Program-made: the position numbers and the translations under genes
Notes under the pieces: generated by a model
Databases searched by the model: none
Seen by the model: the letters and a program-made list of their open reading frames with translations, nothing else
Told to the model about the DNA's origin: nothing
Source of the DNA: Deltaproteobacteria bacterium
GTDB taxonomy: Bacteria; Desulfobacterota; DSM-4660; Desulfatiglandales; HGW-15
Assembly (NCBI GenBank): GCA_020060805.1
Contig: JAGUZM010000404.1
Coordinates: 1-21,549, forward strand
DNA: 21,549 nt
Reading direction: 5' to 3'
Shown: piece by piece, positions 1 to 19,814 of the stretch
Numbering within the stretch: position 1 is the stretch's first letter
Layout of the letters: every line of letters begins with the position of its first letter

Positions 1-166
1 ATGTGATGGCGACCTCGCTGACCCTGTTATCCCTCAGCAGAGAAAGGAATTGGCTGTAGGGAATGGTTTTGATCGCCAGAGCCGAGCCGAGATAATTTTG
101 AATCAGCAGAACCACCCAGATCCCCAGAAGGACATACCATATGGAAAACTTAGTATGCTTCTCCAC
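1..166 (-). CDS. ftsH: ATP-dependent zinc metalloprotease FtsH, N-terminal fragment (runs off the window start)
   Basis: Absent from the ORF track because it is <60 aa inside the window. On the reverse strand a GGAGGAGG SD is followed 6 nt later by GTG at 166. The translation is VEKHTKFSIWYVLLGIWVVLLIQNYLGSALAIKTIPYSQFLSLLRDNRVSEVAIT. That gives a basic N-terminus, one TM helix and the I-x-YS-x-F...LL...V-x-x-V pattern typical of FtsH N-termini. The frame stays open to base 1. Confidence 0.55.
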   Translation of the reverse strand, partial: MEKHTKFSIWYVLLGIWVVLLIQNYLGSALAIKTIPYSQFLSLLRDNRVSEVAIT

Positions 167-202
167 AATCCACCTCCTCCTGCGACAACACCGGCGCTAT
201 CG

Positions 203-1705
203 TCATTTATCCTTCACCTTGAATTTCAGCCAGTCGAGCATCTCCTGGATATTCTTGGCCATGTACCATCGGCCGTTGGCGAAAGCACCGTAATCAGCCC
301 CTGCCATGGCAGAGGAAAAACGGGTTGAGTTGGCGTAGAAAAGCCACTGCTCAACCCACCTCTTTTCAATCGCTTCGTTAAAGATGCTGTCATTCTGCGC
401 AAGCCCTTTGGCCGCTCCCTTCTCCCAGGCAGCAAGGACGATCTTCGTAGCGGTCAGGGTCATCTCATTGGTCTTTTGTATGGTGTTTTCGAGACGAGCG
501 AAATGCCCGTCCACCCAACCCTGGCTGTGGCAGGAAAGGCAGACCTTTTGCATCGCCTTTCGTCTACGCTCCTGTTCCTTCTGATCGATGAGGTAAGTCG
601 TCGCAGGTTCGCCCGTCAGCTCCGTGGGCAGGGGGAGACCTGCCTTGTTCCGGATGATCGTCGTATCCGGGGAAATCGGGTGGGGATGGGCGTAGATCAG
701 GCCGAAGATCCGCCAGGGCAGGCGGTCATTCATCTGATGGGTTCTTCCGGCGATGGTTTCTCCATCTTCAGAGACGAGCAAGCTCACATGGCACGTGGCG
801 CAGGTCGGCCCGGTGATGTCTTTTCCCACGGTCCAGGGAACGGCGTCATAGTTCCATGAACCGCCGAGGGAGGAATACATGTTGCCGTGCTTGCTCACTT
901 CGTAGACTTTGAAAGCGGGCACATCGGGGCCCTTATGGCACTGAGAGCAGGTGTAGGGTTTTCTGGCCATTTCGATAGAGAACCGATGCCTGGTGTGGCA
1001 TGCGCTGCAAGACCCCTTGCTCCCGTCCGGGTTGACCCTTCCTACGCCCTGATTGGGCCAGCCCGAGAGCACCGGGAAGGTCATCTCACCGTGATCGGTC
1101 TCTCTTGAAACGTTCCCCTTCACGCTGACCACGGTTCCGTGGCAGGACAGGCAGGCATCGGCGGAGGTCAGAGGGTCAGGGGCGCTGAGGGTCGTGCTCA
1201 TCCCTGAGAAGGATTGAATGCCTGTGGCCGACTTGACGAAATCCTTGTAGACCGGGTTGTTTTCCAGGTTGCCGTAGGCATGGGACATCAGGTTTTTGCC
1301 GTACTGACTCCTTTCAGCAGGATGGCAGGTGGCGCAATCCTCAGGTGTCACGACCGTGTGAACCTCAAGGCCGTTGTGGTCGAAGGCATCTTTGTGTTTT
1401 GAAGAATTCATGGTGTGACACTCCGCGCATCCCACCACGACATGGGCAAGGGAATCGGGCAGCGTGTCGTAGGAGACCCTTCTCTCCTTCTCAGGCAGGC
1501 CCTTGGCCGCACCGGGGGTGACTCTGGACATGCGGCTTTTTTTCCAGTCCGCCACGATGCCCGGGTGGAGCGACGCATGGCATTCGAGACAGAAAGCCGT
1601 GTCTTCGCTGATAGGTGGTTCAGCGAAGACTGCCTTTGGGAAAAGGAAAACCGAAACGACAGCAACAAAAAAAAGCTTAGTACAAGCCTTCGTAAATACC
1701 CTCAC
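203..1705 (-). CDS. Periplasmic octaheme c-type cytochrome (8 x CxxCH; hydroxylamine-oxidoreductase-like multiheme family is possible)
   Basis: The ORF track gives 203..1924. Eight CxxCH motifs are present: CLECH, CAECH, CATCH, CLSCH, CSACH, CSQCH, CATCH, CLSCH. A signal-peptide-like segment (VRVFTKACTKLFFVAVVSVFLFPKAVFAEP) begins at the in-frame GTG at 1705, which is preceded by GGTGGTGA. The 73 codons upstream (1706-1924) translate the two intergenic hairpins and look non-coding, so I prefer the 1705 start. Confidence 0.85.
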   Translation of the reverse strand: MRVFTKACTKLFFVAVVSVFLFPKAVFAEPPISEDTAFCLECHASLHPGIVADWKKSRMSRVTPGAAKGLPEKERRVSYDTLPDSLAHVVVGCAECHTMNSSKHKDAFDHNGLEVHTVVTPEDCATCHPAERSQYGKNLMSHAYGNLENNPVYKDFVKSATGIQSFSGMSTTLSAPDPLTSADACLSCHGTVVSVKGNVSRETDHGEMTFPVLSGWPNQGVGRVNPDGSKGSCSACHTRHRFSIEMARKPYTCSQCHKGPDVPAFKVYEVSKHGNMYSSLGGSWNYDAVPWTVGKDITGPTCATCHVSLLVSEDGETIAGRTHQMNDRLPWRIFGLIYAHPHPISPDTTIIRNKAGLPLPTELTGEPATTYLIDQKEQERRRKAMQKVCLSCHSQGWVDGHFARLENTIQKTNEMTLTATKIVLAAWEKGAAKGLAQNDSIFNEAIEKRWVEQWLFYANSTRFSSAMAGADYGAFANGRWYMAKNIQEMLDWLKFKVKDK

Positions 1706-1916: not shown

Positions 1917-2621
1917 TTAGTCATCAGCTTCTCCTTGTTCGAGACTTCTCAGAGCCCCGATCGCCAGTTCCCCGATCGTATGCTTCTCAAGCCGCTCTCC
2001 CGAGAATATCAACAGCTCAGTATCATCCTGTGTCAAACCCTCGAGCGCTGAGCAGGCCTCACCAACCCGCAGGAGGCCCAAGATTTTGACCGCAAGACCT
2101 CTGTGGGTCGGGTTGGGAGAGTCCAGAAAGGGCCGGAGAAGAGGGAGCGAATTCTTGACAAGGCCGGGACGCACCTCTGCCACCCTTCCTATTCCCCATA
2201 AAACACCCGATTGCAGGACCTCGTTCTCGAGAAGGTTCCCGTCCTCCCTCAGGTACGATATTAGTATATGGGTATATTCCCTTGCAAGCCTGTCATGGGA
2301 GGCAAGGATTTCACCCATCGCCTCGGGAGATCCCCACCCGATGCCGCCCGACTCGTCGTTGAGGTTCCACATCAGCCTGCGCAGGATGACGCGAGCTGCT
2401 TCCATGTCCCCCTCGGCCAGGCTCGCAACCACCGCTCCCATGGCTTTCACAGCGCCCCATTTCAATCTCTCGTCCCCCTCCTGGATCAAGGCAAAAAGGG
2501 GATTAACCGCAACCCGCGGCGGAAACCGGCAGATTTCCTCGATCGCAACGGGCAGGTTCCGTGTTTTCAAGAGTTCCAGAACTCTCTTTTTCAATGCCCG
2601 GCCTTTTGTGGGATGATTCAT
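1917..2621 (-). CDS. HEAT/armadillo-like repeat protein (resembles the 'DVU0298 family' annotation seen in sulfate reducers; assignment from memory)
   Basis: 234-aa ORF of repetitive alpha-helical character (e.g. LKWGAVKAMGAVVASL, VLWGIGRVAEV, RGLAVKILGLL) with an ESGGIGWGSPEAMGEI motif. It lies co-directionally between the rubredoxin and the cytochrome. Confidence 0.65.
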   Translation of the reverse strand: MNHPTKGRALKKRVLELLKTRNLPVAIEEICRFPPRVAVNPLFALIQEGDERLKWGAVKAMGAVVASLAEGDMEAARVILRRLMWNLNDESGGIGWGSPEAMGEILASHDRLAREYTHILISYLREDGNLLENEVLQSGVLWGIGRVAEVRPGLVKNSLPLLRPFLDSPNPTHRGLAVKILGLLRVGEACSALEGLTQDDTELLIFSGERLEKHTIGELAIGALRSLEQGEADD

Positions 2622-7675: not shown

Positions 7676-7708
7676 AAAAAAACCCCGTGGGCCCATTGGC
7701 CCATGGGG
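7676..7708 (-). terminator. Rho-independent terminator of the dodecin gene
   Basis: On the minus strand the hairpin CCCCATGGGCC-AATG-GGCCCACGGGG (11 bp, one G-U) is followed directly by TTTTTTTGTGCCTTTTTT. It sits 20 nt after the stop codon at 7729. Confidence 0.65.
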
Positions 7709-7728: not shown

Positions 7729-7938
7729 TCAACCCTCGTACTTGAAGGATAGGTTGACCCTTGCCCGGTAGAGCTTGACCTTCCCTTTCTCAACAGTCAT
7801 ATCCAGTTTGGTCACTTCCGCGACTCTCAGATCCCTGAGGGTTCCTGAGGCGGTTTCCACCGCGGTTTTGGCAGCCTCCTCCCAGGATTTATCGCTGGTT
7901 CCCACGAGTTGAACGATGTTGTAGGTACTTGGTCCCAT
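7729..7938 (-). CDS. Dodecin family flavin-binding protein (69 aa)
   Basis: The sequence is MGPSTYNIVQLVGTSDKSWEEAAKTAVETASGTLRDLRVAEVTKLDMTVEKGKVKLYRARVNLSFKYEG. This matches the dodecin pattern (YK-I-V-E-L-x-G-S-S..W-E-x-A...A..T-L-R-x-L...E-V). The ATG at 7938 is preceded by AAAGGAGGGGAA. The longer track ORF (to 8016) lacks an SD. Confidence 0.8.
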   Translation of the reverse strand: MGPSTYNIVQLVGTSDKSWEEAAKTAVETASGTLRDLRVAEVTKLDMTVEKGKVKLYRARVNLSFKYEG

Positions 7939-7997
7939 GTTTCCCCTCCTTTCAAAAATGTGCCTTTTTTCTTGAATTGCCCCAACCGCCGGGCCAG

Positions 7998-8026
7998 AGA
8001 ATACCCTCCCGGACACGATAAGTCAA
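7998..8026 (-). promoter_or_regulatory. Sigma70-like promoter candidate for dodecin
   Basis: On the minus strand TTGACT (8026-8021) is followed by a 17-nt spacer and TATTCT (8003-7998). This lies ~60 nt upstream of the ATG at 7938. Confidence 0.45.
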
Positions 8027-8077: not shown

Positions 8078-8608
8078 TCACATCGGGACGAAGCTGTTGG
8101 CCTGAAAATAATCCTCCTTGAGCAACTGAAGCTGGTTCTTGAAGGCTTTGTAATGGTCCTCTTCCCAGGCTGCCAGCTCATGGTAGAAAGCCTTCACATC
8201 CGGGGAGTCCGCTTTGTCGGCACAGGACCTGTAGAACTTCATGGCGTCCTGTTCCAGCTTCATGCCGATGGTGAGGGCGCTCACCTCGAAATGGCTGCTC
8301 TTGATTCGGGATTCGATCTCCTTGCTGAAAATCGGGCCGACGCCGTGCTTGCGGGAGCTTTTTTTCAATTTCTTTTTCAAATCATAGTCCCCGGTGTCAA
8401 GCACAGACCGGTACTGATGCTGCAGGTAATGGAGGTGCCCCATTTCTTCCTGGGCCATTTTCGCAAAGGTCGCCTTTCCCTTCGGGTCCTTGGTGCTTTT
8501 GGCTGCGCTTTTATAGAACTCATGGCCCGTCAACTCCGCTTCAATCGCTGTCTTCAGGCCATCCAGAATTTTCTTTTTGCTCCTTTCCATGGTCAGCTCC
8601 TTGTTCAT
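8078..8608 (-). CDS. Ferritin-like / rubrerythrin-family diiron protein (no rubredoxin domain)
   Basis: Four helix motifs carry the E / ExxH ligand pattern: EAELTGHEFY, QEEMGHLHYL, KLEQDAMKFY, AWEEDHYKAF. Length is 176 aa. Confidence 0.8.
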   Translation of the reverse strand: MNKELTMERSKKKILDGLKTAIEAELTGHEFYKSAAKSTKDPKGKATFAKMAQEEMGHLHYLQHQYRSVLDTGDYDLKKKLKKSSRKHGVGPIFSKEIESRIKSSHFEVSALTIGMKLEQDAMKFYRSCADKADSPDVKAFYHELAAWEEDHYKAFKNQLQLLKEDYFQANSFVPM

Positions 8609-8759: not shown

Positions 8760-9092
8760 TTAAGAAAACTTCTCAGGCGGTCGCCGCTCGGGAACATATT
8801 GAATCGGGGTTTTTCCTTCATTCCACGCCTTCGAGACATAGAGATTGCAATAACAGCTCCCGAACTCCTTCACATCAGGCACCCGGTAGACGCAAGGGCA
8901 GATGATGTCCTGGTCTTTTAGACGGTCTCCTGACGAGAGCCTGCAAGGGCAACACATATACCCATAGCGTTTCCTGTTTTCGATCAACGAGGCCAGGAGG
9001 TCAAAAACCCTTTCCCTGTCTTTGTTGAAATAATAGCCCTTCGGTTCCTGAACCTTTTTCAGGTTCTCATACAGTTTCTCCACCTCGTTCAT
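8760..9092 (-). CDS. Ferredoxin:thioredoxin reductase catalytic (beta) subunit-like protein
   Basis: The Cys pattern CCPCR-x14-CPC-x13-CYC is the FTR catalytic-chain CPC...CPC...C(H/Y)C arrangement. Length is 110 aa. The start overlaps the upstream gene's stop (ATGA). Confidence 0.85.
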   Translation of the reverse strand: MNEVEKLYENLKKVQEPKGYYFNKDRERVFDLLASLIENRKRYGYMCCPCRLSSGDRLKDQDIICPCVYRVPDVKEFGSCYCNLYVSKAWNEGKTPIQYVPERRPPEKFS

Positions 9093-9340
9093 AGTCCGAG
9101 AGCCTCCTTGATCTCTTTCTCCTTGAAGCCCACGATGACCTTATCACCGATGATGATGGTGGGAAAAGAACACCGGGGGTTCAGTTTCCTCACGTCCTCC
9201 AGGATGGCGGTCCTCTCTTCGCCCTCGAGCATATCCACGTCCGTGAATTCGTACTTGACGGCGCATTCGTCCAGGAATTTCTTGGTCGCCTTGCAGTGAC
9301 TGCATGTGCTCAGCGTGTACATCTTGATGCTTTCTTTCAT
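9089..9340 (-). CDS. Glutaredoxin-like / small thioredoxin-fold protein (CSHC active site)
   Basis: The sequence is MKESIKMYTLSTCSHCKATKKFLDECAVKYEFTDVD...CSFPTIIIGDKVIVGF, which has the Grx/NrdH-like topology. The ATG at 9340 is preceded by AAAGGAG. The track ORF's N-terminal extension to 9427 overlaps the upstream gene and is rejected. Confidence 0.8.
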   Translation of the reverse strand: MKESIKMYTLSTCSHCKATKKFLDECAVKYEFTDVDMLEGEERTAILEDVRKLNPRCSFPTIIIGDKVIVGFKEKEIKEALGL

Positions 9341-9359
9341 CAGCGTCGCTCCTTTCTCG

Positions 9360-10193
9360 TCAGGCTTCGCCTTCCATGAGGCGACCCAGGGATGCAAGAT
9401 GCCTCTTTTCTTCTTCCCCAAGGTCATGAAAGACGGCCTTGCTACGATGGTCTTGGCTTTTCCGTGAATAACGCAGGTAGAGATCGAGGGCCTGGGTTTC
9501 GAGCATCATGGCGATACCCAGGACGTTTTCCCTAGTATTCATCGCTTCCTTATTCTGCTCCATGAACTCCTCGGTCGTGAATCCCCCTTCCATGAGTTTC
9601 GAAACGATGCGGGTTTCGAACTGCCCCTGATCCGTTACGGTCCTATCGAGGGTCTGATACAGGTTGAAGAGCTTTTGGCGGTGATTCTCTTCGATGCCGG
9701 CCAACCGTTTCAGAAGGCTTTTTACCTCTGGCTGAGGGGTGGTTTCCGCGATCGCGGTATACCACTCAGACAACCCGGTCTCCATGCCGTATGCAAGAAC
9801 CACCACCTCCGGCGGCTTTTCATCTCCCTTCAGGTAGGCCATTCCCATTTCCGCTGGGCCGAAGGCTGTTCGGCCCTGCCAGGCGGTAATGCCCCCTTTG
9901 AGGTTGTACACTTCCTTGAAGCCCTCACCGGCCAGGAGTTGCGCAGCAGCACGGCTGCGCGCGCCGGTGGCTCAGTACGCAATCACGGGTTTCTGGGGAT
10001 CGAGTTCCCCATTACGGTTGAGGAGCTCCGGCAAGGGGATCAAAACGGCCCCCGGGATGTGCGACTTTTCGTATTCAGAAGGCTGGCGAACGTCAAGAAG
10101 GGAATAGGTTCCTTCTTTGTGTGTATTGATGTAGGTTTTCGCCTCTTCGGCGTTCATGGTGTTGACGGGTGTGAAAAATTTCAACCACTTCAC
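9360..10193 (-). CDS. Rhodanese-domain sulfurtransferase fused to a ferritin-like domain; probable selenoprotein with UGA (9974-9972) at the catalytic Cys position
   Basis: Track ORFs 9972..10193 and 9360..9911 are in the same frame, separated only by one TGA. The read-through translation is ...LDPQKPVIAY-U-ATGARSRAAAQLLAGEGFKEVYNLKGGITAWQG. This is the rhodanese active-site loop (Y-C-x-x-G-x-R-S) with TGA in place of Cys. The C-terminal half carries E/ExxH motifs: YGMETGLSEWY, IEENHRQKL, MLETQALDLY, EEEKRHLASL. The GTG start at 10193 is preceded by AAGGGG 8 nt upstream. Confidence 0.75.
9928..9967 (-). promoter_or_regulatory. Candidate bacterial SECIS stem-loop downstream of the in-frame UGA
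   Basis: The minus-strand RNA is UGA GCCA CCGGC GC GCGCAGC-CGUGCU-GCUGCGC AACUCCUG GCCGG. It has a 7-bp apical stem with a 6-nt loop containing GU at about +23/+24 from the U of UGA, plus a 5-bp outer stem (CCGGC/GCCGG). Confidence 0.5.
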
Positions 10194-10640
10194 GACAGCA
10201 ACCCCTTGGCGTTCAATCGGTCATCGCCCCAGAACCTACTATGGGACGCCTGAAATCTCAAGCAAAACGTGGGCGAGGAAAGGGCGTTTCCTTTGGCGTG
10301 CCCGGTTTTGAAAATCAAGCAGCAATATAATCACTGGATCAGCGCCTACAACCCCTTCTGCTTAAACCCGGGGGAGTGGGCTGCGACCGATCGAGGGATA
10401 CCTTGTCAACCGCCCTGGCGGGGTTTAATATAGGGAAAGAATTAGCCCGGATCTTCGGTCCCACCAGCAGTACGGGGGATCCAGCTGCGAAGCTTGTCCA
10501 ATAACTCCCTCCTTAGAGGGAGAGGGGATTTGGGTTGTCGGGCAGCCTCCGTAACGTCCTTCGAGCGGTAAGGGGGCGCTGGGATCGCACCGGGGAAGCC
10601 CCGACAGAACCGATGATGCGGTGGGGAGGTGAATCATCTC

Positions 10641-11522
10641 ATGGAAAAAGTGGTCATAGAGGGAGTGGAACTGCACCTGACGCAGCCGGATGACGTTCCC
10701 ATGGTTTGGGTCGGCCAGGATGAGCTTGTCACCCAGGTCCTGGCAGCATGGCTCGTCATCGGCGACGATGATTTGCCCCTCCATCCGAGGCTCGTTGGAA
10801 AACCGGGCGTCGGCAAAACCACCCTGGCCTACCATGCGGGCCGTAAGCTCGGGAAACCGGTGTACCTTTACCAGGCGACGATGGACACGCGGCCGGAGGA
10901 CCTCATCGTGACCCCGGTGATCTCGGAAGCGGGCAAGATCAAGTACATGGCAAGCCCCATCGTTTCAGCCATGATCAAAGGGGGTGTGGCGGTCATCGAC
11001 GAAGGAAACAGGATGAGCGAGAAAAGCTGGGCCTCCCTCGCGCCGCTGATGGACAGCAGGCGCTACGTGGAATCCGTCGTTGCAGGAATCAAGATCAAAG
11101 CCCATCCCGAGTTCAGGCTCTGCACAACCATGAACGATGACGCCAGCACCTTTGAGCTTCCGGATTACATCCATTCGAGGCTCCAGCCGCAGATCTTCAT
11201 CGACTTTCCGGAAAGGGATGAAGAACTCCTCATCCTCAGGGCCAATCTGCCCTTTGCCGAGGAGGGGGTCCTGCAGTACGTGGTGGATTTTCTGCAGGCT
11301 GCCCATGAAATGGATGAGCGCTATTCGGTCAGGGACGGGATCAACATCGCCCGGTACGCCTTGAAAAGGCTTGTGGAGAGCGGCGAACGCCTCACCTCCC
11401 AGGAGCGGACGGAGAGGGTCGTTCAGTACATGAAAGAGGCTGCCACGATGATCCTGGATCCCAACGCCGCCCGGTATTTCAAGGACACGGTGGACTCCGG
11501 CGATGACGAAGAACAGGATTGA
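10641..11522 (+). CDS. AAA+ ATPase of the AAA_5 class (MoxR / CbbQ-NorQ / McrB-like)
   Basis: Walker A is GKPGVGKTT and Walker B is VAVIDEGNR. The sensor region is LCTTMN, and an arginine-rich helical lid follows. I prefer the ATG at 10641, with GGGGAGG 11 nt upstream. The track starts at GTG 10629. Confidence 0.85.
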   Translation: MEKVVIEGVELHLTQPDDVPMVWVGQDELVTQVLAAWLVIGDDDLPLHPRLVGKPGVGKTTLAYHAGRKLGKPVYLYQATMDTRPEDLIVTPVISEAGKIKYMASPIVSAMIKGGVAVIDEGNRMSEKSWASLAPLMDSRRYVESVVAGIKIKAHPEFRLCTTMNDDASTFELPDYIHSRLQPQIFIDFPERDEELLILRANLPFAEEGVLQYVVDFLQAAHEMDERYSVRDGINIARYALKRLVESGERLTSQERTERVVQYMKEAATMILDPNAARYFKDTVDSGDDEEQD

Positions 11523-13332
11523 GTGGAAAAACATCCGCTTTGTGCCTGTCCTTCACGGGCGGATGGAATTGGCCCTGGAGGTGAGGAGACAGTTCCGGGA
11601 GTTCAAGCCCGACCAAGTGGCGGTGGAATACCCCCATACCCTGCAGGACCAGATCCTTCGAGGAGTCAAGAGACTCCCCCTTCTCTCCGTTGTCTATTAT
11701 CAGGAGAGCGACGGCGCCTTCATTTACCTCCTTCTGGAGCCGACAGATCCGCTGGTGGAGGCTGTCAGGCTCGCCCTGGAAAACAACGTTCCGGTTCACT
11801 TCGTAGACCGGGACACGGAAGGCTATCCCCTTGATCGGTCCCCTATGCCTGACCCGTATGCGATCACCCGCATCGGTCATTACCTCTTCTGCCAGGCTTA
11901 CCTCAAGACCCGGGAGGGCGAGATGCCGTTCCTGGAAGACTCCCTCCGGGAGAAGACGATGGCCTACCATCTCCAGCGGCTGAACAGAGCAGGGGGGAAG
12001 ACCCTTTTCGTGGGCGGCCTGTACCACCTCCCCGGGATTCTTTCCAACATCGAAGGGCCCCAGGCGGAGGTAATCGGCAGGAAGCACAGGGAAGGGGCTG
12101 GACTGGCCCATCTACATCAGGACTCCAGCGCGGAAGTGTTGACAGAAATGCCCTTTCTGGTGGCAAGGTATGAGCGCTTCAGGGGTGCAGGGGGCGCGGA
12201 AGACCCTGACAGGCTCAAGGTTCATAACGAACTCATCGGCCTTGCCCGCAGGAGCCACTGGAAGAACAACAAAGAGGAATTATCCCGCCTTCAGGTCAGG
12301 ATCATGCACAAGTTTGCCAGGAACTATGCCCTTGTCACGGGCGGGCTGGTGCCCAGTTTCTACCAGCTCCTCGTGGCTGCCCGGGGAGCTGCGGATGACA
12401 ATTTTGCGTATGAACTTTGGGAAAAGGGGAGCGAATACCCGTGGCAGGCAGAGCAGCCCGGGCTGCCCATCATGCGCCTCAGCGGTGAGGATCTTTTCCT
12501 CGACCAGAAAAGGATACGATTCCACCGGAGGCTGAAGGCCTTCCGCAGGCGCCTGGTTCCGGTTCCCGTGAAGAAGAGGATAAGGGAGAAGACCCCGGGG
12601 GAATGGAAGAAAAGCTTCGACCACCTCTTCATCTGCTCTTATCCGCCCGAGGACGTGGTCGTGGAGGGTTACGGCCAATACCTCCAGAAAAAGGCCCTGG
12701 AGATCAAGTCTGAGGAGAACAGCCGGAGCGTTCCTTTTGTCAGTTCCATGATGGATGGGATCGATATCCGGGAGACCGTCAGGAACTGGGCCGAAGCGAA
12801 GATCTACGTGAAGGAGGGGAGGCCTATCCGGGGGAAGGTGGGATCCGTGGTCATGATTTTTGACCCTGACATGGCGGGAAAGGACGGGAAGGAAAATTTT
12901 CCCTGGAAGGTCACCTGGCTCGGTGAGCACGAACAGGAATCAGACATGGCTTTTTACAGCACCCCGGCCGGCGGCGTCATGGACGGGCCGGGTATTTCCC
13001 GGTGCCAGTACGGAGGCTTCATGCTCACCTATCCTCCGCTGAGGGTTTTGGATATATGGCAGGATCCCTTTTTCAACGTGGCGAGGAATAAACCGGAAAG
13101 GCTTCTCATGGCCGCCATAGACTACAGCGCGGAAAAACATGTGGTCTACGTCGCAGCCGACCCTCCCTCGGGATGGTGCCAGACCATGGCCGCGAAGCTG
13201 GGAAAGAAGATCATCTACATGCCCATCGGCGTTTTTTCTCCCGTGGCTCTGAAAAAGATCCGCCAGTTCCACGTCCTTGCCGGCCACCACGTCCGCAGGT
13301 ACGCCAAGCAGTACATCAAAACCGCCTCATGA
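11503..13332 (+). CDS. Large uncharacterised protein, DUF5682-like (partner of AAA_5 ATPases)
   Basis: 609-aa ORF whose ATG overlaps the ATPase gene's end by 20 nt, implying translational coupling. The N-terminus is IRFVPVLHGRMELALEVRRQFREFKPDQVAVEYP...EPTDPLVEAVRLALENNVPVHFVDRD. That resembles, from memory, the start of DUF5682 proteins found next to MoxR-like ATPases. The family call is tentative. Confidence 0.7.
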   Translation: MTKNRIEWKNIRFVPVLHGRMELALEVRRQFREFKPDQVAVEYPHTLQDQILRGVKRLPLLSVVYYQESDGAFIYLLLEPTDPLVEAVRLALENNVPVHFVDRDTEGYPLDRSPMPDPYAITRIGHYLFCQAYLKTREGEMPFLEDSLREKTMAYHLQRLNRAGGKTLFVGGLYHLPGILSNIEGPQAEVIGRKHREGAGLAHLHQDSSAEVLTEMPFLVARYERFRGAGGAEDPDRLKVHNELIGLARRSHWKNNKEELSRLQVRIMHKFARNYALVTGGLVPSFYQLLVAARGAADDNFAYELWEKGSEYPWQAEQPGLPIMRLSGEDLFLDQKRIRFHRRLKAFRRRLVPVPVKKRIREKTPGEWKKSFDHLFICSYPPEDVVVEGYGQYLQKKALEIKSEENSRSVPFVSSMMDGIDIRETVRNWAEAKIYVKEGRPIRGKVGSVVMIFDPDMAGKDGKENFPWKVTWLGEHEQESDMAFYSTPAGGVMDGPGISRCQYGGFMLTYPPLRVLDIWQDPFFNVARNKPERLLMAAIDYSAEKHVVYVAADPPSGWCQTMAAKLGKKIIYMPIGVFSPVALKKIRQFHVLAGHHVRRYAKQYIKTAS

Positions 13333-13464: not shown

Positions 13465-13953
13465 TCAAACTACGGCATTAGAACCCCTTTCTGCCTGTAG
13501 ATGAGTCTTCAAAACGTAAAGGATCTGGACCTCCAAAGGCCTCATTTCTTCTTCACTGAGCGCCCGGATCTGGGCGAAAAGATCAGGATAAAGCTTAAAG
13601 TTTATGATTACCTCCAAATCGGGCCGTGGCTGCATTTTCTCAGGGCGGTCCTTACTAACCTTCACCTTTTTCCCTGTTCCCCTGGAGGCCAACGTCTTGC
13701 GCTTTAAGCGCATGCACTCGGAACACAAACGGTGCGAAGGAGTGATCGTCTGCCGTTGCTCGCACTCTTCACATAATCTGACCGGCTTCTCCTCCATATT
13801 GCTTTGCCCTCGTCTTAGTTCAACCACAAACGGATCTTCTTCACGCTCTCTTTCTACTCTCTCCCCACAGCTTTCGCATCTTAGTGACCTTGTTCTTCCA
13901 TGAACCAATCTACTCAGGCAGGCCGAATAGTGAACACACTCAGGATCGCGCAT
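13465..13953 (-). CDS. Double zinc-ribbon protein with C-terminal ribbon-helix-helix-like region (putative DNA/RNA-binding regulator)
   Basis: There are two Cys4 clusters: C-x5-C-x13-C-x2-C and CEEC-x12-CSEC. The C-terminus DLEVIINFKLYPDLFAQIRALSEEEMRPLEVQILYVLKTHL has a beta-alpha-alpha RHH-like pattern. It is the last gene before the element end. The start is uncertain (ATG 13953, or the internal MEEKP Met). Confidence 0.6.
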   Translation of the reverse strand: MRDPECVHYSACLSRLVHGRTRSLRCESCGERVEREREEDPFVVELRRGQSNMEEKPVRLCEECEQRQTITPSHRLCSECMRLKRKTLASRGTGKKVKVSKDRPEKMQPRPDLEVIINFKLYPDLFAQIRALSEEEMRPLEVQILYVLKTHLQAERGSNAVV

Positions 13954-13976
13954 TTCAAAAGACTCGGCAAATCGAA

Positions 13977-15875
13977 CTAGACCAACTTAGCCTCCCTCAA
14001 CTCTACCAATATCCGGCTGCGACCATATTTGATTGCGCTGGCGAGGCCTTCATCGATTCGGCGTATAAGGTCTTCACTGCCTCCACCGGCGATATTAATG
14101 CTTCCAACGTCGAAATTCAAAATCATCCCGGCTGCCCCGCGCCCCATAGCCGCACCGCCGCTCACACCCTTCAGAACTTCGAACTGGGCTTCAAGAAGTT
14201 GCTTGCTTAGACCGTAGGCCTCTTTTTCTCCAGCGCCCGCATACATCCTGTAAGTCGTCACGTCGGTGAGAGGCCCGAAATCCCTGATCGCCCTGATCGT
14301 CGCCTGCATCGATGCTGTGAGGCTCGCTACTCCGGTAAGGTCGAGGGCATCCTGTATGACGCCACCTACACCCCGAAGGTCGTCCATCATTTCCTGTATC
14401 CCCACGGCCCAGGGCTTTGCAGGAGATTTCTTAATTTGAGGCTCGAACACGAAAGGATTCCGGCCCTCCTCCGCCGCCATGTAGTCAAAAAATTGGGCTG
14501 TACTCTGTGTCGCCTGAGCGATGCTCTCGCTTGCGTTTTGAGCAGCCTCCTGGATCGAATTGATAGTATCGACCACCTTCTCAGCGGCTGCCGAATAAGA
14601 TCCAGGCTGTGAAATAGGCATTCTCACAAAAGGACCTCCGGTCTCCGATGTGCTTTCTATCCCAGAAAGAAGCCTCTTCAGTTCAGGGAAATTGGAAAAC
14701 GCATACTCGCTCAAGCTCAGCTTTCCTGCCGCTACCGCCTGTGCTCCCTTGACCGAATTCTGTACTGCCTCGATGAGATGAAGTCCTGCTCCAAAAACAG
14801 CAAGCCCTTTTTTGCCGAATACGATTGCTGCTACAACTCCTCCCTCCTGAATCCACCCAGGAAGCGATTGAAACGTTTTATAAAGCTCTTCGCCTTTCGT
14901 TATTATTTTCGGCAGATACCTATCCGCGATGTCCGCCAATGAACCCACCGTCCTCACCAATCCCTTCGCCAAATCCAAGATCTCGTCAGCAGTCTTTTTT
15001 GCCCACTCTTGAAGTTTCCCTTCCGAATGAAGTTTATCCACCCGATCCACAACGCCTGCGAGGAAGGTTTCTAGTGACTTCATGACACCGGATTTCATCA
15101 CGAGGCGCTCAAACTCAGTCCAGTAGCTTTTGAGGCTCTCGGTCATTCCCGACCACGTCTTTTGTATCTTCTCTGACTGTCCACCGTAACGCTCCTGCAG
15201 ACCTTCGAATATTGCCTGCACTGCCGCCTTTGCGTTCAGGCTCGACGTCTCCACCTCGCCGAATTTCTTTTTTAGAATGTCGAACACCGGGACACCACGC
15301 TCTGCGAGCTGCATCAGCTCTTCTGCGCTCACCTTTCCTTTCGTGGCAATTTGCGCGAGAGCCCTGGCGATGCCCTGTAAAGTCTCTTCCGTGCCGCCCA
15401 ATGCGCTCATCGTATCGACAAGAATCGTCATCTGCTTAGTGGTTGGATCAAGCCCCATCGCCTTCATCATGATGAAGGTCTCAACCGCCTTCTGGGTATT
15501 CACAGGCATTTTGAGAGCCCACTCATTTAGCATCCTGAAGGTTTCTTCACCTTTCCCTTTTGTAAGAGTGTCAAGGCTGAGCGTCATCTTGTCGAACGAA
15601 GCAGCCGTGTTTACAAAACCAGAGGCAATCCGTTCTAGACGCCATCCCACAAAGGCCGTGGCCGCTATAGTTTTAAGGTTCACAAGCGACTTCCTGACTT
15701 CGCCGATCCTGCCCTTCACACCATCAAAGAGATTCTGGACCCGTTGCAGCCCAGGAGCGGCGCTTGTCCCGACCCCGGAAAGGTTCTTCGATGCGCCGTC
15801 GGTAAACTTCTTGATGTCAGCAAGGGCCTTGTCCACAGCGGCTTTCACGATGATCTCGACCGTATTCTCAGGCAT
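13977..15875 (-). CDS. Phage tail tape-measure protein
   Basis: 632 aa, Ala/Gly/Gln-rich and helical. The N-terminal tape-measure core is FDKMTLSLDTL...EETFRMLNEWALKMPVNTQKAVETFIMMKAMGLDP...TLQGIARALAQIATKGKVSAEELMQLAERGVPVFDILKKKFG. The SD GGGAGGA precedes the ATG. Confidence 0.8.
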   Translation of the reverse strand: MPENTVEIIVKAAVDKALADIKKFTDGASKNLSGVGTSAAPGLQRVQNLFDGVKGRIGEVRKSLVNLKTIAATAFVGWRLERIASGFVNTAASFDKMTLSLDTLTKGKGEETFRMLNEWALKMPVNTQKAVETFIMMKAMGLDPTTKQMTILVDTMSALGGTEETLQGIARALAQIATKGKVSAEELMQLAERGVPVFDILKKKFGEVETSSLNAKAAVQAIFEGLQERYGGQSEKIQKTWSGMTESLKSYWTEFERLVMKSGVMKSLETFLAGVVDRVDKLHSEGKLQEWAKKTADEILDLAKGLVRTVGSLADIADRYLPKIITKGEELYKTFQSLPGWIQEGGVVAAIVFGKKGLAVFGAGLHLIEAVQNSVKGAQAVAAGKLSLSEYAFSNFPELKRLLSGIESTSETGGPFVRMPISQPGSYSAAAEKVVDTINSIQEAAQNASESIAQATQSTAQFFDYMAAEEGRNPFVFEPQIKKSPAKPWAVGIQEMMDDLRGVGGVIQDALDLTGVASLTASMQATIRAIRDFGPLTDVTTYRMYAGAGEKEAYGLSKQLLEAQFEVLKGVSGGAAMGRGAAGMILNFDVGSINIAGGGSEDLIRRIDEGLASAIKYGRSRILVELREAKLV

Positions 15876-15901
15876 CTTTTATCCTCCCCTTCTTCCCTCA
15901 T

Positions 15902-16267
15902 TCAGAGTGGCTTGTAACATCCTCTCACCCTTCTTCTCATGCACAGGCTACAGATATACCACTCGTTATTAAGCTCTTGCCCATCCATAATTCCGAGCAT
16001 CTCAAAAGCCCATCTATCCGCCGCCAACTCTTCCGCCTCATCTGGCCCATCGAACTTGTTAATGAGAACGTGCTTTATTTCGTGGAACAGAACGAAAAAA
16101 GCTAAATATGGGCACTTCAGGTTGTGTGGAGAGATGAGGATTCGGAAACTGCCGTCGCGGAATCTGTGCGCTTCCCCGGCATGATTGTTTTCTAGGTCGC
16201 AGACCATCACGTATCTGATACTTTGGCAATGGTCTTTTGCAATAGAAGTCAGGAAGTCATTTATCAT
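15902..16267 (-). CDS. Small HExxH zinc-metallopeptidase-like protein (ImmA/IrrE M78-like or SprT-like; family ambiguous)
   Basis: FVLFHEIKHVL is followed by EAEELAADRWAFEML, which is like the HExxH...E-x-x-A-N-x-F-A motif of ImmA/IrrE. The C-terminal Y-x-C-x-x-C is also seen in SprT-like proteins. Confidence 0.6.
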   Translation of the reverse strand: MINDFLTSIAKDHCQSIRYVMVCDLENNHAGEAHRFRDGSFRILISPHNLKCPYLAFFVLFHEIKHVLINKFDGPDEAEELAADRWAFEMLGIMDGQELNNEWYICSLCMRRRVRGCYKPL

Positions 16268-16350
16268 CGATCACCCTTTCTTTGTAGAAGGAGGGCCTGA
16301 GCGGGAAAGAAGGAGGAAACCCGCTCAGGCCAGCACATGGCTGCGACGTG

Positions 16351-17526
16351 CTATGAGACCACGGACTTGTAAGCTGATCGGTATTCGACCAAGGCTCCTT
16401 GATACTCGTGCCTGACCTTGTAGAGCCACGCATCCCCTTTAAATGCAGCCTCGCTCAGTGAGTCATCAACGATGATTTCCGGTTCCTCTCGCCCGTTCAG
16501 ATAAGACATTTCGATGCAACCGACATCCTCAACAGGGCGAATGATGCCCCAATCATTCGTGTCGCTTAAGAAGGAGATGATTGCGATTCGCTCATTCTTC
16601 TCCCCGAAGAGGCCGCGAACTGAGTTTATGGTTTTGGTTGTCAGATCATTTCCCGTGTAATAAGAATCGAGTTGGTTGACGCGCACAGCCGTATCCCAGA
16701 GTGAAAGCGGCACAGCAAGCCACCATTTGCCGCCGAGATTGATCCCTATCTTTTCGTTGCTCGGCGAACCCTCGGTCATGTCGCCCAAGGCGCCAACACC
16801 CGTAACCACGGCTGCGATTGAAAGCGCCCCAGATCCAAGGTTCCCATGCCCTCCGGTAAACCAGGCCGTTCCATCCGAACAATTTGCGTTGGAGGTGAAA
16901 AAACTCCAAACGTGTTTAGCATGCGTCCTTCTAGCAGCCCTCGCTACACGGTTAAGGAGTGCTCGCACAAGCCCGATGTTCTCGTTTATCATGCATATTC
17001 TTGTAATCTTAATAACCAGGCCTCGGGTAGTGATTGAGTAGGAAGCCTGTTCATCCCCAAAAGGCGCTATTGCGCCATAATCAGCCGCTTCCGGGTCAAC
17101 GGTCGGGATATCGCTCAAATATCCGAACCTCACAGCCTTAATGCTTCTGAAGTCTTTAGCGGATCGCTTTAAGCCGATCAGGGCGGCCTCATGGAAATCA
17201 ATATCAGCGTACTCTTTGGCCAACCCGACGTGGAGAGCGTTTTGCAATGCGTAGTCAAAGCTGGAGGAGTTGAAATCCTGGCATGATCGAAGATCCGCGT
17301 CCACCCGGTTTGAGTAGAATAACCCCCGCATTTCTACGTCGCCGGTGAAAAACTCATACGCAGGCCGCAAACCAGCGAAGGCAGGTATACCGTTGGAATC
17401 GAACCAGGGATTAATGAGCTTGGTGAGAGCTGCCCTGGCTTTGTCGAGCGCCGTCCGGCCCACTTCGAGCGATGAGTAATACACAGTCCGTTCAATGTCC
17501 CTCAAAAGTTTTTCCTTGCTGTCCAT
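16351..17526 (-). CDS. Putative HK97-fold major capsid protein
   Basis: 391 aa with the SD AGGAGG. The central segment SITTRGLVIKITRICMINENIGLVRALLNRVARAARRTHAKHVWSFF resembles the beta-strand plus long 'spine helix' region of phage major capsid proteins (gpT/HK97-like). It lies upstream of the tape measure in phage-like order. The call rests on pattern recognition only. Confidence 0.6.
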   Translation of the reverse strand: MDSKEKLLRDIERTVYYSSLEVGRTALDKARAALTKLINPWFDSNGIPAFAGLRPAYEFFTGDVEMRGLFYSNRVDADLRSCQDFNSSSFDYALQNALHVGLAKEYADIDFHEAALIGLKRSAKDFRSIKAVRFGYLSDIPTVDPEAADYGAIAPFGDEQASYSITTRGLVIKITRICMINENIGLVRALLNRVARAARRTHAKHVWSFFTSNANCSDGTAWFTGGHGNLGSGALSIAAVVTGVGALGDMTEGSPSNEKIGINLGGKWWLAVPLSLWDTAVRVNQLDSYYTGNDLTTKTINSVRGLFGEKNERIAIISFLSDTNDWGIIRPVEDVGCIEMSYLNGREEPEIIVDDSLSEAAFKGDAWLYKVRHEYQGALVEYRSAYKSVVS

Positions 17527-17578
17527 TTTAGTCCTCCTGCGTGGCCTACAAACCGACCACGGTGATATTTAATGTCAC

Positions 17579-17890
17579 TTATTGCTTCGCTTGATCGGCC
17601 CTAGCTTCACCGGATATTCGCACAGGCTCGGATCTCGCCTCCGCATCCCTCGGCCTTCTTTGGCCCAACTTTGAATCCCAGATCATTTCCTGCTTTGGGG
17701 GAATGCCCGTTTTCTGAACGTCTGTTAACTTGACAGATGCAGGCGCTCCCTTCTTATGGCGGATCTTTGCCCCTCCGTGCGTAACGATCACGATTTCGCC
17801 TGTAGTCTCATCAAACCTTTGAGCGAATACATGTTCCTCTCGAAGGCCATAGACCTTCAGCGTCTCTTGGAATCCTTTTTCATCTCTCAT
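17579..17890 (-). CDS. Hypothetical protein (103 aa), basic C-terminal tail
   Basis: The ORF starts 5 nt after the upstream stop and is co-directional within the element. No recognisable motif. Confidence 0.5.
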   Translation of the reverse strand: MRDEKGFQETLKVYGLREEHVFAQRFDETTGEIVIVTHGGAKIRHKKGAPASVKLTDVQKTGIPPKQEMIWDSKLGQRRPRDAEARSEPVRISGEARADQAKQ

Positions 17891-17895
17891 TTTCC

Positions 17896-18162
17896 CTATA
17901 CCCCCTCGATCTCAAATTTGATGGTGTATTCTCGTCCTCTCGCTGTCATGAACTGAAGAATTGCCATCCGGTTCAGCATGAGTATCTCTCCACGTTTCCC
18001 CATTACGTTGTATTCGATCGTAATCCCTTTTCGTAAATCAACATCCAGCCGGATAGGATACGATTTCTTAATGCCATTAGTGGTAACGTGCAAAATCGCC
18101 CTCGGGTAAGAGTCAAGAAGCGCCAGAATCTCCTCCAATTCTGTTTGCGTATACTCGTCCAT
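17896..18162 (-). CDS. Hypothetical protein (88 aa from ATG 18162)
   Basis: The track ORF starts at TTG 18186. I prefer the ATG at 18162, preceded by GGGAGGAAG. It lies immediately downstream of the structured spacer. No recognisable motif. Confidence 0.5.
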   Translation of the reverse strand: MDEYTQTELEEILALLDSYPRAILHVTTNGIKKSYPIRLDVDLRKGITIEYNVMGKRGEILMLNRMAILQFMTARGREYTIKFEIEGV

Positions 18163-18177
18163 CTTCCTCCCAACAAA

Positions 18178-18283
18178 AAAGCCCAATTGTGCGTGAGATC
18201 CCCTTCGGGGACTTCCTGAGAACCCCTCCGAGGATTTTCTGAGATCCTGCCCAAGGACCTCATGACCGCAACAATTGGGCTTT
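18178..18283 (-). ncRNA. Structured intergenic RNA element / attenuator-terminator candidate inside the element
   Basis: A 13-bp helix pairs AAAGCCCAATTGT (18178-18190) with ACAATTGGGCTTT (18271-18283), plus GCG/CGC across a bulged A. It encloses ~75 nt containing a TCCCC-TTC-GGGGA hairpin (18199-18211), an AGGAT/ATCCT hairpin (18231-18248) and a repeated TGAGATCC. On the minus strand the 3' arm runs straight into UUUUUUGUU and then the SD and ATG of the next gene. Confidence 0.45.
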
Positions 18284-18347
18284 ACTTTACGACTAAACTA
18301 CCCGGCAACTGCAGACCGTCAGCTACCGACCACAACACAGTTAAACT

Positions 18348-18572
18348 TTACTCGCGACCATGTCCCTCCACTTCCGCGACCATGTCCCTCCACTTCTGAA
18401 GTTCTGAGACTATGCCGGTGAACTCCCACAAAAACCAGCTTGCCTCTCTGTTCGCTTTCATGACCCGCTTATAGTCGAACAATGGAATGCTATCCACTTT
18501 TGCACGCAACTCATCTAACCACGCGGGATTGACATACCTAAATTTCTCGCCTCTGGGCCTCTTCGTTTTCAT
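18348..18572 (-). CDS. Hypothetical protein (74 aa)
   Basis: A strong SD, AAGGAGGTGA, lies 5 nt upstream of the ATG at 18572. The last 15 codons are encoded by the 22-bp tandem duplication. Confidence 0.55.
   Translation of the reverse strand: MKTKRPRGEKFRYVNPAWLDELRAKVDSIPLFDYKRVMKANREASWFLWEFTGIVSELQKWRDMVAEVEGHGRE
18353..18396. repeat. Perfect tandem duplication, 2 x 22 bp (CGCGACCATGTCCCTCCACTTC)
   Basis: Copies at 18353-18374 and 18375-18396 are identical. Because 22 is not a multiple of 3, the two copies are read in different frames: KWRDMVA and then EVEGHGR. Confidence 0.9.
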
Positions 18573-18576
18573 ATTA

Positions 18577-19038
18577 TCACCTCCTTTCTTTTCGATTTTT
18601 CCAGCTCTCCAGCACCGGGTGTTCCAAGGGGGCTTTCTCAGGCTCGATCAGGATATAGCAGCCCTCGCTATACTTCCGTGAAGTCGAGATAGATCTAATG
18701 ATCCCCTTTTGCTCCAAGAACCGTAAGTATTTGTGAGCATGGCTTCTAGAAGCACCGCTCAAAAGCACGAGATCTCTCCAGGTAAACCGACCCTTGATTA
18801 TGATCGCCCGCCACATTTTTTCGGTCATGGAGAAGGGGCGTTGTCTCATCTTGTATCGGAAAATCCCCGGCTGGACGGAAACGATCTCGCCGGTCTTCTT
18901 TAAGCCTTTCAAACCGCCCTTGAGCCTCGCCTTTTCAGCATAGCTACGGATGCAGAGGCGGTCAGCGAGATCATGGATCGTGAACTGAACCAACTCGACG
19001 GCTGCCTCTCGAATTTGTTTAGCGAGCTTCTGCCCCAT
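18577..19038 (-). CDS. Putative winged-helix DNA-binding protein (153 aa)
   Basis: There are two wHTH-like segments: FTIHDLADRLCIRSYAEKARLKGGLKGLKKTGEIV and FTWRDLVLLSGASRSHAHKYLRFLEQKGII. The start overlaps the ATPase gene's stop (TAATG). The assignment is weak. Confidence 0.55.
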   Translation of the reverse strand: MGQKLAKQIREAAVELVQFTIHDLADRLCIRSYAEKARLKGGLKGLKKTGEIVSVQPGIFRYKMRQRPFSMTEKMWRAIIIKGRFTWRDLVLLSGASRSHAHKYLRFLEQKGIIRSISTSRKYSEGCYILIEPEKAPLEHPVLESWKNRKERR

Positions 19039-19814
19039 TACGCAACCGCCGCCAACGCTGGTTTTTGATCGCTTCCGCCGTTCAGGATCTCCCCCAACTG
19101 CTCAGGATTCGGCATGCCCTTTGTAACCTCTTTGACCATCTTCGTGCTCACTTCGGCTTTGTTGTTTATTAGACACACCTTTTCGAGACGAACCAATAAA
19201 GCATTCACCAGCCTGAAGTCCCCCAAGGTGATTGTTCTGATCAAGCCTCCCACTTCGGCGTCACACTTCAACCCGCAGAGTTCTTTGGCAATGCCCTGAA
19301 TGTCTTTAGCGCTCAGCGGAGAAAACTCAACGGCTTCCGTGATCCGTGAAAAGAAGTTCCCCAACTCGTTTCTCTGCAAGCTGTTATAGATGCTTTCCTG
19401 GCCGACCAAAACAATCGGGACTTTGCTGATATCCGCAAGGTCTCGAACGGTCTCAACGAGAAGAGATTTGCGAACCACCCTGTCAGCCTCGTCTATAAAG
19501 AACACCACGCCGTGCTTTCGAAGTGTTCGGACAAGCTCCCTCAAATTCTCTTTAACGGTCCTGACCGGCTGAACTCGAAAGGCTAAAAGCATGTCTTCAA
19601 GCATCATACACAGCGACCGGGTCCAAGCTGCGACCGCCCGGCAGTGGAAACTTGGATAGTTGGAACAATACCACTCCGTGAAAGAGCTTTTCCCTAATCC
19701 GGGCCGCCCATAGAGAAGGCCTATGCGGTCAATGCGAGAACCTTTGTCAATCAAGGCTTTGACCATCATGAAAGCCTTACTTACGCTCTCAGTCATCACG
19801 AATTTGTCACGCAT
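19038..19814 (-). CDS. AAA+ transposition ATPase (MuB / TniB / TnsC-like)
   Basis: Walker A is GRPGLGKSS and Walker B is VFFIDEADR. Size is 258 aa. It lies immediately downstream of the DDE transposase and overlaps it by 8 nt. Confidence 0.85.
   Translation of the reverse strand: MRDKFVMTESVSKAFMMVKALIDKGSRIDRIGLLYGRPGLGKSSFTEWYCSNYPSFHCRAVAAWTRSLCMMLEDMLLAFRVQPVRTVKENLRELVRTLRKHGVVFFIDEADRVVRKSLLVETVRDLADISKVPIVLVGQESIYNSLQRNELGNFFSRITEAVEFSPLSAKDIQGIAKELCGLKCDAEVGGLIRTITLGDFRLVNALLVRLEKVCLINNKAEVSTKMVKEVTKGMPNPEQLGEILNGGSDQKPALAAVA

Follow-up and report, generated by a model that had tools for sequence, protein, structure and literature searches.

A rhodanese-diiron fusion gene of Desulfobacterota in which an in-frame UGA, in place of the catalytic Cys codon of the rhodanese, most likely encodes selenocysteine

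Rhodanese-related sulfurtransferases (COG0607/PF00581) that carry selenocysteine (Sec) are predicted prokaryotic selenoproteins, a prediction credited to Zhang & Gladyshev 2005 in PMC13188914 and PMC9312934. Sec-rhodaneses are also covered in PMC2398784, eight such genes are reported from the Olavius symbionts, and proteins of this type are abundant in Deltaproteobacteria/Desulfobacterota (PMC1976440). A 2026 review distinguishes five forms of Sec-rhodanese, two of which (forms 2 and 4) have the motif UxxG (PMC13188914). The subject of this study is a gene on contig JAGUZM010000404.1 (assembly GCA_020060805.1) of a Deltaproteobacteria bacterium; the whole stretch of 21,549 nucleotides (nt) that was analysed is referred to as the window. 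Positions 9360-10193 of the window very probably form one gene in which a UGA codon is decoded as Sec and a rhodanese domain is joined to a diiron domain of rubrerythrin-like type. The coordinates of this gene and of the other features are collected in Table 1.

The window protein resembles the catalogued Sec-rhodaneses in having a single rhodanese domain with Sec in place of its catalytic Cys, in the UxxG motif (here U-A-T-G), and in a Sec insertion sequence (SECIS) that lies inside the open reading frame (ORF). By motif, it falls under the UxxG Sec-rhodanese definition tabulated in PMC13188914 (PF00581 with Sec in UxxG). It differs in architecture, the definition of the catalogued forms resting on the rhodanese domain only; their representatives MBM9537886.1 and MCY3690685.1 are compared here by description only. 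Sec-rhodaneses have long been catalogued, so the kind is already known, and a preliminary description of this locus, made from the sequence alone, had placed it correctly in a known selenoprotein family (listed in PMC13188914). The only two curated NCBIfam models for Sec-rhodaneses are missed by the window protein, with 38.7 bits against a cut-off of 115 for NF041203 (rhodanese_LYCAU) and 25.0 against 805 for NF045694 (TsoB), and none of the other NCBIfam models attains its cut-off with this protein either. No curated NCBIfam model was found for the rhodanese-diiron fusion, and the literature search found no paper mentioning a fusion of a rubrerythrin or diiron domain to a Sec-rhodanese.

Mechanical ORF calling splits the gene into two reverse-strand ORFs, 9972..10193 and 9360..9911, and the NCBI and JGI records of the contig hold only the C-terminal fragment, at 183 and 162 amino acids (aa), respectively, the JGI label being "rubrerythrin." Translation of the reverse strand from 10193 to 9360 gives one frame, 278 codons long, that is interrupted once by a stop (...KPVIAY*ATGARSRAAAQLLAGEGFKEVYNLKGGITAWQG...), and the sequence around this stop is ...CCC GTG ATT GCG TAC TGA GCC ACC GGC GCG CGC AGC CGT GCT GCT GCG CAA.... 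This agrees with the preliminary description, in which the two ORFs were read as one frame interrupted by a single TGA (9974-9972). The GTG start at 10193 agrees with the N-terminus of the homologues, MxWKQFxTPV, and full-length homologues are about 277 aa long, as is the read-through product.

A Pfam search of the read-through product, with Cys substituted for the stop, recovers both domains with scores well above their cut-offs (Table 1), and the fusion to a four-helix ferritin-like domain that had been proposed is confirmed. The loop beginning at Sec74, U-A-T-G-A-R-S, is the six-residue loop of sulfurtransferase-type rhodaneses and fits the pattern C/U-X4-[RT/S]; R79 and S80 are invariant across the fusion family in alignments of both 24 and 119 sequences. 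The ligand set of the diiron domain is E138, E168xxH171, E232, and E262xxH265, which completes the E, ExxH, E, ExxH pattern. In the same two alignments E138, E232, E262, and H265 are invariant, and conservation of E168 and of H171 is 90% or higher. The 277-residue product has no PF21349 match and no CxxC pairs, that is, no rubredoxin-like Fe(Cys)4 domain, and because of this absence the C-terminal domain is named rubrerythrin-like and not rubrerythrin.

Table 1. Positions of the gene, its predicted elements, and the neighbouring features in the window.
Feature	Position	Strand	Evidence or remark
Gene, most likely for a selenoprotein, 277 residues	9360..10193	-	GTG start 10193; Sec = residue 74; TGA stop 9362-9360
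UGA codon, most likely read as Sec, at rhodanese catalytic position (U-A-T-G, i.e. UxxG)	9972..9974	-	Homologue alignment and codon survey
Rhodanese domain, PF00581	9876..10127, residues ~23-106	-	85.6 bits vs cut-off 22.2; 3.6e-24
Rubrerythrin-like four-helix diiron domain, PF02915	9378..9809, residues ~129-272	-	44.2 bits vs cut-off 22.8; 3.1e-11
SECIS-like upper stem-loop	9941..9960 (stem 9960-9954/9947-9941)	-	7-bp perfect stem; comparative support
Extended hairpin	9926..9969	-	Lower stem CACCGGC/GCCGGUG (nt 6-12 with 43-49) enclosing the upper stem-loop
Glutaredoxin-like protein, 83 aa, CSHC motif	9089..9340	-	PF00462, 1.4e-13; starts 19 nt past selenoprotein stop
FTR catalytic-subunit-like protein, 110 aa, CPC...CPC...CYC	8760..9092	-	PF02943, 1.2e-18; 4-nt overlap with glutaredoxin-like gene
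Stand-alone rubrerythrin/ferritin-like protein, 176 aa	8078..8608	-	PF02915, 1.5e-13; same position in L007
Dodecin, last gene of putative operon	7729..8016	-	PF07311, 4e-22; present in L014 too
Terminator-like hairpin and T-run after dodecin	7680..7703	-	Consensus match only
AAA_5 (MoxR/GvpN-like) ATPase	10629-11522	+	Divergent from selenoprotein gene
609-aa protein, no family match	11503-13332	+	Divergent from selenoprotein gene
Tape-measure protein of Mu-like segment	13977-15875	-	
Phage capsid of Mu-like segment	16351-17526	-	
TniB/MuB-like AAA ATPase of Mu-like segment	19038-19814	-	
Mu-type transposase, rve and Mu-transpos_C domains	19807-21549	-	Continues past window end
Multi-haem cytochrome c, 573 aa	203-1924	-	Seven-haem type and MtrC/MtrF-like matches
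HEAT-repeat protein	1917-2621	-	Start overlapped by multi-haem cytochrome c gene

More than 2,300 relatives were retrieved from protein databases, and nearly all of the best 119, which were aligned, have about 277 residues and the same two domains. The column of the TGA holds Cys in 115 of these homologues, "W" in three, and Ser in one, and the alignment thus bears out the proposal that the TGA stands at the rhodanese catalytic Cys. The Ser entry, P0099, is a full-length homologue with Ser at the catalytic position, seen in the protein entry only. The three "W" entries (P0004, P0066, and P0110) have TGA in their DNA (L001 position 527, L002 position 696, and L003 position 271, respectively). 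The W appears because the gene caller chose an alternative code, with TGA as Trp, on short contigs of 1-1.5 kb, and these entries are hidden Sec forms.

At least 589 genomes encode a relative in a survey with one genome per GTDB species, and the best 80 loci were analysed. These are mainly from Desulfatiglandales, Desulfobacteraceae, Desulfomonile, and Desulfobaccales, with one from Scalinduaceae and one from Acidobacteriota. The preliminary description could not place the architecture among characterised proteins; this judgement falls with the size of the survey and with the JGI label of homologues, "rhodanese-related sulfurtransferase/rubrerythrin." The fusion family is common and labelled in databases, and is uncharacterised rather than unknown.

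Of the best 80 species genomes, 42 have TGA as the catalytic codon and the other 38 have TGC or TGT. The TGA type includes L013 (complete genome CP070657.1), L043 (Desulfonema limicola), and L029 and L037 (Desulfomonile tiedjei), and the Cys type is represented by L072 (Desulfobacter curvatus DSM 3379) and by the homologue P0107 (Desulfonema magnum). Together with three metagenome contigs and the window gene, these loci make a set of 84 genes, 46 of TGA type and 38 of Cys type. The frame after the catalytic codon is open for 202-211 codons in every one of the 84. The loop AxGGRSRxAAQ downstream of the codon is conserved, and RSRxAAQ is encoded by the TGA and Cys classes alike. On a neighbour-joining tree the Sec and Cys forms interleave, and at least 18 switches between the two are required. 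As read from the codons, the pairing of Sec with Cys is the classical signature of a selenoprotein family. These comparisons strongly support a large fusion family, mainly of Desulfobacterota, in which the catalytic residue appears to have switched repeatedly between Sec and Cys.

The survey also bears on two explanations that dispense with Sec. TGA is one substitution from TGC and TGT, the contig that supplied the window is of metagenome type, and 38 of 80 relatives have Cys, all of which would suit a lesion (a pseudogene or an error of sequencing or assembly) in a gene with TGC or TGT. However, 42 independent species genomes and the three metagenome contigs have TGA at this very codon, the TGA forms stem from many different projects, and a hairpin kept by synonymous codon choice (described below) accompanies them. 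Further frame disruptions in relatives had been named in advance as an observation that would speak against Sec, and none is present in the 84 genes. The recurrence of TGA at one codon across species, the intact frames, and the repeated switches rule out a lesion or sequencing error for practical purposes, and such an origin of the TGA is barely credible.

The TGA could alternatively be a true stop, with a 73-aa rhodanese fragment as one product and a ferritin-like protein of 183 (or 162) aa, begun at an internal GTG or ATG, as another. NCBI and JGI annotate the contig in this way, and other genes of the window end at TGA in the ordinary manner. Yet the first product would end exactly ahead of the active-site loop, and the 20 codons at 9971-9912, which would then be left between the products, encode a loop and helix, AxGGRSRxAAQLLxGxGF, with protein-level conservation in all TGA-type relatives. 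A gene boundary at this point in homologues was the second observation named in advance as adverse to Sec, and the Cys-type relatives are instead single proteins of about 277 aa. Two separate products are therefore very improbable.

A bacterial element for decoding UGA as Sec with which this locus can be compared is that of Escherichia coli fdhF, a hairpin within the ORF just 3' of the UGA. The fdhF element has an 11-nt spacer before a minimal stem-loop and has G23/U24 in the loop, and the window hairpin has both features (its nucleotides are numbered throughout from the T of TGA). Its upper stem pairs nt 15-21 (GCGCAGC) with nt 28-34 (GCUGCGC) around a six-nt loop, nt 22-27 (CGUGCU), in which G23 and U24 lie, and 11 nt separate the UGA from the stem. 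A GC-rich stem-loop with GU in its loop had been described about 11-34 nt downstream, and it is found there, with the stem at nt 15-34. The lower stem of the extended hairpin is specific to the window and is unconserved in relatives. The significance of the hairpin comes from comparative data and not from the window sequence alone.

Two registers of the hairpin, offset by 3 nt, occur among the 84 genes. Register A, CGC AGC ... GCU GCG, pairs nt 15/16-21 with nt 28-33/34 and has nt 22-27 as its loop, while register B, [A/C]GG AGC CGN GNN GCG GCU C, pairs nt 18-23 with nt 29-34 and has a loop at nt 24-28 that is typically AGUUG. Both encode the same RSRxAAQ peptide, with synonymous Arg and Ala codons swapped (L001-L003, L004-L083). 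At least five consecutive pairs in register A or B are present in 44 of the 46 TGA genes versus five of the 38 Cys genes. When nt 4-60 were scanned without bias for the longest hairpin, it fell in registers A or B in 38 of the 46 TGA genes and was scattered in the Cys genes. In L011 a compensatory A18-U31 pair replaces C18-G31 by way of an Ala-to-Ser change. Counted from the UGA, the apical loop is reached after 18 nt in register A and after 20 nt in register B. The range given for bacterial SECIS elements, 16-37 nt (PMC10778597), covers both values, and the window hairpin has both a distance in this range and a G in the loop. The comparison strongly supports the view that synonymous codon choice maintains a SECIS-like hairpin specifically in the TGA forms. 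Although position within the ORF and a loop 18-20 nt from the UGA are shared with fdhF, the sequence of the window and family hairpins is unlike that of the fdhF element, the conserved register has no bulged U, and there are two alternative registers.

A Cys-type clade (L030, L031, L032, L038, L058, L060, L062, and L076), largely Desulfobaccales-like, has another strong hairpin almost at this place, with a loop of 9 nt between GGCCGC and GCGGCC (i+j = 46). This hairpin may be left over from an earlier SECIS or may simply reflect GC-rich codons.

Several observations weigh against decoding of the UGA as Sec. Neither selA, selB, selD, nor a tRNA-Sec was found within the 21.5-kb window (ARAGORN reports no tRNA), and a scan of the window for ORF pairs bridged by TGA gave, besides this gene, only spurious antisense pairs. 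No relevant Rfam match was found in the whole window at the gathering threshold or in a permissive search of 9850-10050, and Rfam contains no bacterial SECIS model that fits the hairpin. The canonical stem is missing from two TGA genes (L005 and L036) and kept in five Cys genes, and the difference in pairing between the classes (Fisher p = 1e-15) was obtained with registers defined post hoc from the TGA sequences and with a test that ignores phylogenetic relatedness. The minimum free energy (MFE) from RNAfold, -27.4 kcal/mol, is unexceptional for a GC-rich stretch (z = -1.1 versus shuffles), and the MFE of nt 10-42 fails to separate TGA from Cys genes (p = 0.24). The MFE is uninformative here because the R-S-R-x-A-A codons are GC-rich and mutually complementary, so that many folds are possible, and it was replaced by the register-specific pairing test and the unbiased scan. 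The near-even division of the relatives between TGA and Cys codons, the intact frames, and the distribution of the hairpin uphold the original proposal of Sec.

Read-through without Sec, either by near-cognate insertion of Trp or Cys or under a reassigned code, would agree with the three database entries that give W, but these are choices of a gene caller, as set out above, and the DNA has TGA. TGA is the terminator of eight of the 16 confidently identified window genes, including the stop of this gene itself, and the code is therefore not reassigned. TGG occurs at the catalytic column in none of the 84 genes, the position of a catalytic Cys calls for Sec or Cys, and a conserved hairpin at SECIS spacing would have no role in simple read-through. 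Decoding as another amino acid is thus highly unlikely, and Sec is the residue assumed at position 74 in what follows.

An AlphaFold model of a Cys homologue with 62% identity is a confident two-domain unit (pLDDT 88.4, pTM 0.88), with long helices at 127-151, 155-182, 221-245, and 249-275 in the diiron domain. Foldseek against the PDB matched only the rhodanese part (TMq ~0.3), and the PDB search found no solved structure covering both domains. Profile matches of the rhodanese domain in the PDB include GlpE, PspE, CoADR-RHD, and PDO-rhodanese fusions. The nearest structures to the diiron domain at the sequence level are TM1526 (1vjx), 2fzf, and encapsulated ferritins, and not rubrerythrin (Rbr) itself.

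Rubrerythrins of the Desulfovibrio vulgaris Rbr type share with the fusion a four-helix diiron domain, anaerobic hosts, and gene neighbours connected with oxidative stress. They differ in their C-terminal rubredoxin-like FeS4 domain, which the fusion is without; in the fusion an N-terminal rhodanese sits where an accessory redox domain would be. The best structural and sequence matches to the rhodanese domain are persulfide-handling fusions, namely the persulfide dioxygenase-rhodanese fusion BpPRF (5ve3-5), with 40-44% identity over about 98 aligned columns, the CoA-disulfide reductase CoADR-RHD (3icr), an NADH-dependent persulfide reductase (3nta), and a CoA-persulfide reductase (8a56). These share a design in which a rhodanese Cys works together with a redox domain based on iron or flavin. 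In 21 of the 84 loci a flavoprotein disulfide reductase is encoded directly downstream, like a split CoADR-RHD. The persulfide-handling fusions use Cys and have a mononuclear iron partner of metallo-beta-lactamase fold or an FAD partner, whereas the partner here is a ferritin-like diiron bundle.

Downstream of the selenoprotein gene are genes for a glutaredoxin (Grx)-like protein and a protein like the catalytic subunit of ferredoxin-thioredoxin reductase (FTR; the subunit is abbreviated FTRc). The mechanical Grx-like ORF, 9089-9427 (112 aa, ATG 9427), overlaps the 3' end of the selenoprotein gene; the true start is likely to be ATG 9340, behind a GAAAGGAG ribosome-binding site, which gives 83 aa as in relatives. 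The FTRc-like protein has Tyr in its third motif (CYC), and no variable-subunit gene is found nearby; plant and cyanobacterial FTR have CHC in this motif. The same protein matches the "FtrB double-selenoprotein" model weakly (47 bits versus a cut-off of 160), and all of its motif positions are Cys. The rubrerythrin-like gene at 8078..8608 is probably in the same transcription unit as the selenoprotein gene.

The operon with Grx-like and FTRc genes noted in the preliminary description is present in the window, but as a conserved trait of the family it was rejected, as only five of the 83 other loci have the pair. It adjoins the family gene in four of these, downstream in L007 and L014 and upstream in L012 and L013, and lies about 5 kb from it in L057. 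The FTRc gene is always paired with a Grx gene in relatives, and the two form a tight module with two gene orders. Since the module is not a family trait, it supports a Se/S relay weakly. The nearest relatives by synteny are a metagenome-assembled genome (MAG) of Desulfobacteraceae, L007, which has TGA, and a Desulfatiglandales MAG, L014, which has Cys; in both, the AAA_5 ATPase and the 609-aa protein are syntenic with the family gene, at 73-86% identity.

The most common neighbour is a Pyr_redox_2 flavoprotein, the reductase already mentioned, immediately downstream on the same strand (for example, L071 6918-8087). It accompanies family genes of the Sec type as well as the Cys type, does not occur in the window, and matches TIGR03169, "Nterm_to_SelD," at 8e-74, below the model cut-off. 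Other recurrent neighbours are nitroreductase-family proteins (17 loci), a membrane protein of fatty-acid-hydroxylase type (12 loci), rubrerythrins, a DUF255 thioredoxin-like protein, and a Cu-type P-ATPase. Elsewhere in the window, the reverse strand of 13465-21549 is a Mu-like transposable prophage segment, the genes of which are listed in Table 1 with the remaining features.

As to function, the variable gene neighbourhood across the 84 loci weighs against the relay proposed below. By analogy with E. coli, SelB with Sec-tRNA(Sec) would bind the hairpin at 9960-9941 and bring Sec to the UGA. Rubrerythrins depend on an accessory domain for the entry of electrons. This need, the persulfide-handling fusions as nearest relatives of the rhodanese domain, and the use of Sec in catalogued prokaryotic selenoproteins, which is nearly always redox-catalytic (PMC9312934), suggest that the Sec or Cys probably works as a redox or persulfide relay with the diiron site. 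The relay would be a redox-active persulfide or selenenyl-sulfide acting with the diiron centre, which would be an O2- or H2O2-reactive site of rubrerythrin type, with the rhodanese substituting for the rubredoxin electron-entry domain. A disulfide-reductase system would return the oxidised Sec to its reduced state. In the window this could run from ferredoxin to the FTRc-like protein and then to the Grx-like protein, and in about a quarter of the relatives the adjacent flavoprotein disulfide reductase, related to the SelD-fused domain, could take this role. That the fusion is an unrecognised enzyme class, in which the rhodanese selenol or thiol replaces rubredoxin electron entry or delivers persulfide to the diiron centre, is a tentative and rather doubtful proposal.

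A different function, in sulfur or selenium trafficking or Fe-S repair, is possible if on the unlikely side. In that case the rhodanese would serve as carrier of a persulfide or perselenide and the ferritin-like domain as donor or holder of iron. Rhodanese-bound selenium can act as a selenium donor in vitro, the active-site loop matches that of rhodanese sulfurtransferases, and the most common neighbour is related to the SelD-fused reductase domain (TIGR03169). In contrast, the predominantly redox-catalytic role of prokaryotic Sec (PMC9312934) does not favour a carrier, the diiron domain fits rubrerythrin-type sites and not iron-storage ferritins, and the neighbours are oxidative-stress and redox proteins.

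The identification of one more Sec-rhodanese would not in itself surprise a specialist, and what makes this locus valuable is the size of the annotation gap, together with the dual-register SECIS and a rhodanese-diiron architecture that is unstudied. Public annotation splits or truncates this gene and its TGA-type counterparts in 42 of the 80 closest species genomes sampled. No curated NCBIfam model was found that would let PGAP call Sec, and the selenoproteomes of Desulfobacterota are consequently undercounted. The two interchangeable SECIS registers would be accommodated in a single peptide by synonymous codon swaps, and at least 18 natural switches between Sec and Cys in one enzyme would make the family a good system for asking what Sec gains over Cys. 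No characterised or solved counterpart of the rhodanese-diiron fusion was found, and the FTRc/Grx module and the SelD-N-terminal-like reductase provide testable hypotheses. If the proposed enzyme class is real, this would be a major selenoprotein family, with Sec in about half of the sampled species, that has been missed by pipelines and not catalogued as a fusion, and anaerobic Desulfobacterota would gain a means of peroxide, oxygen, or persulfide detoxification driven by ferredoxin/FTRc/Grx or by a flavoprotein.

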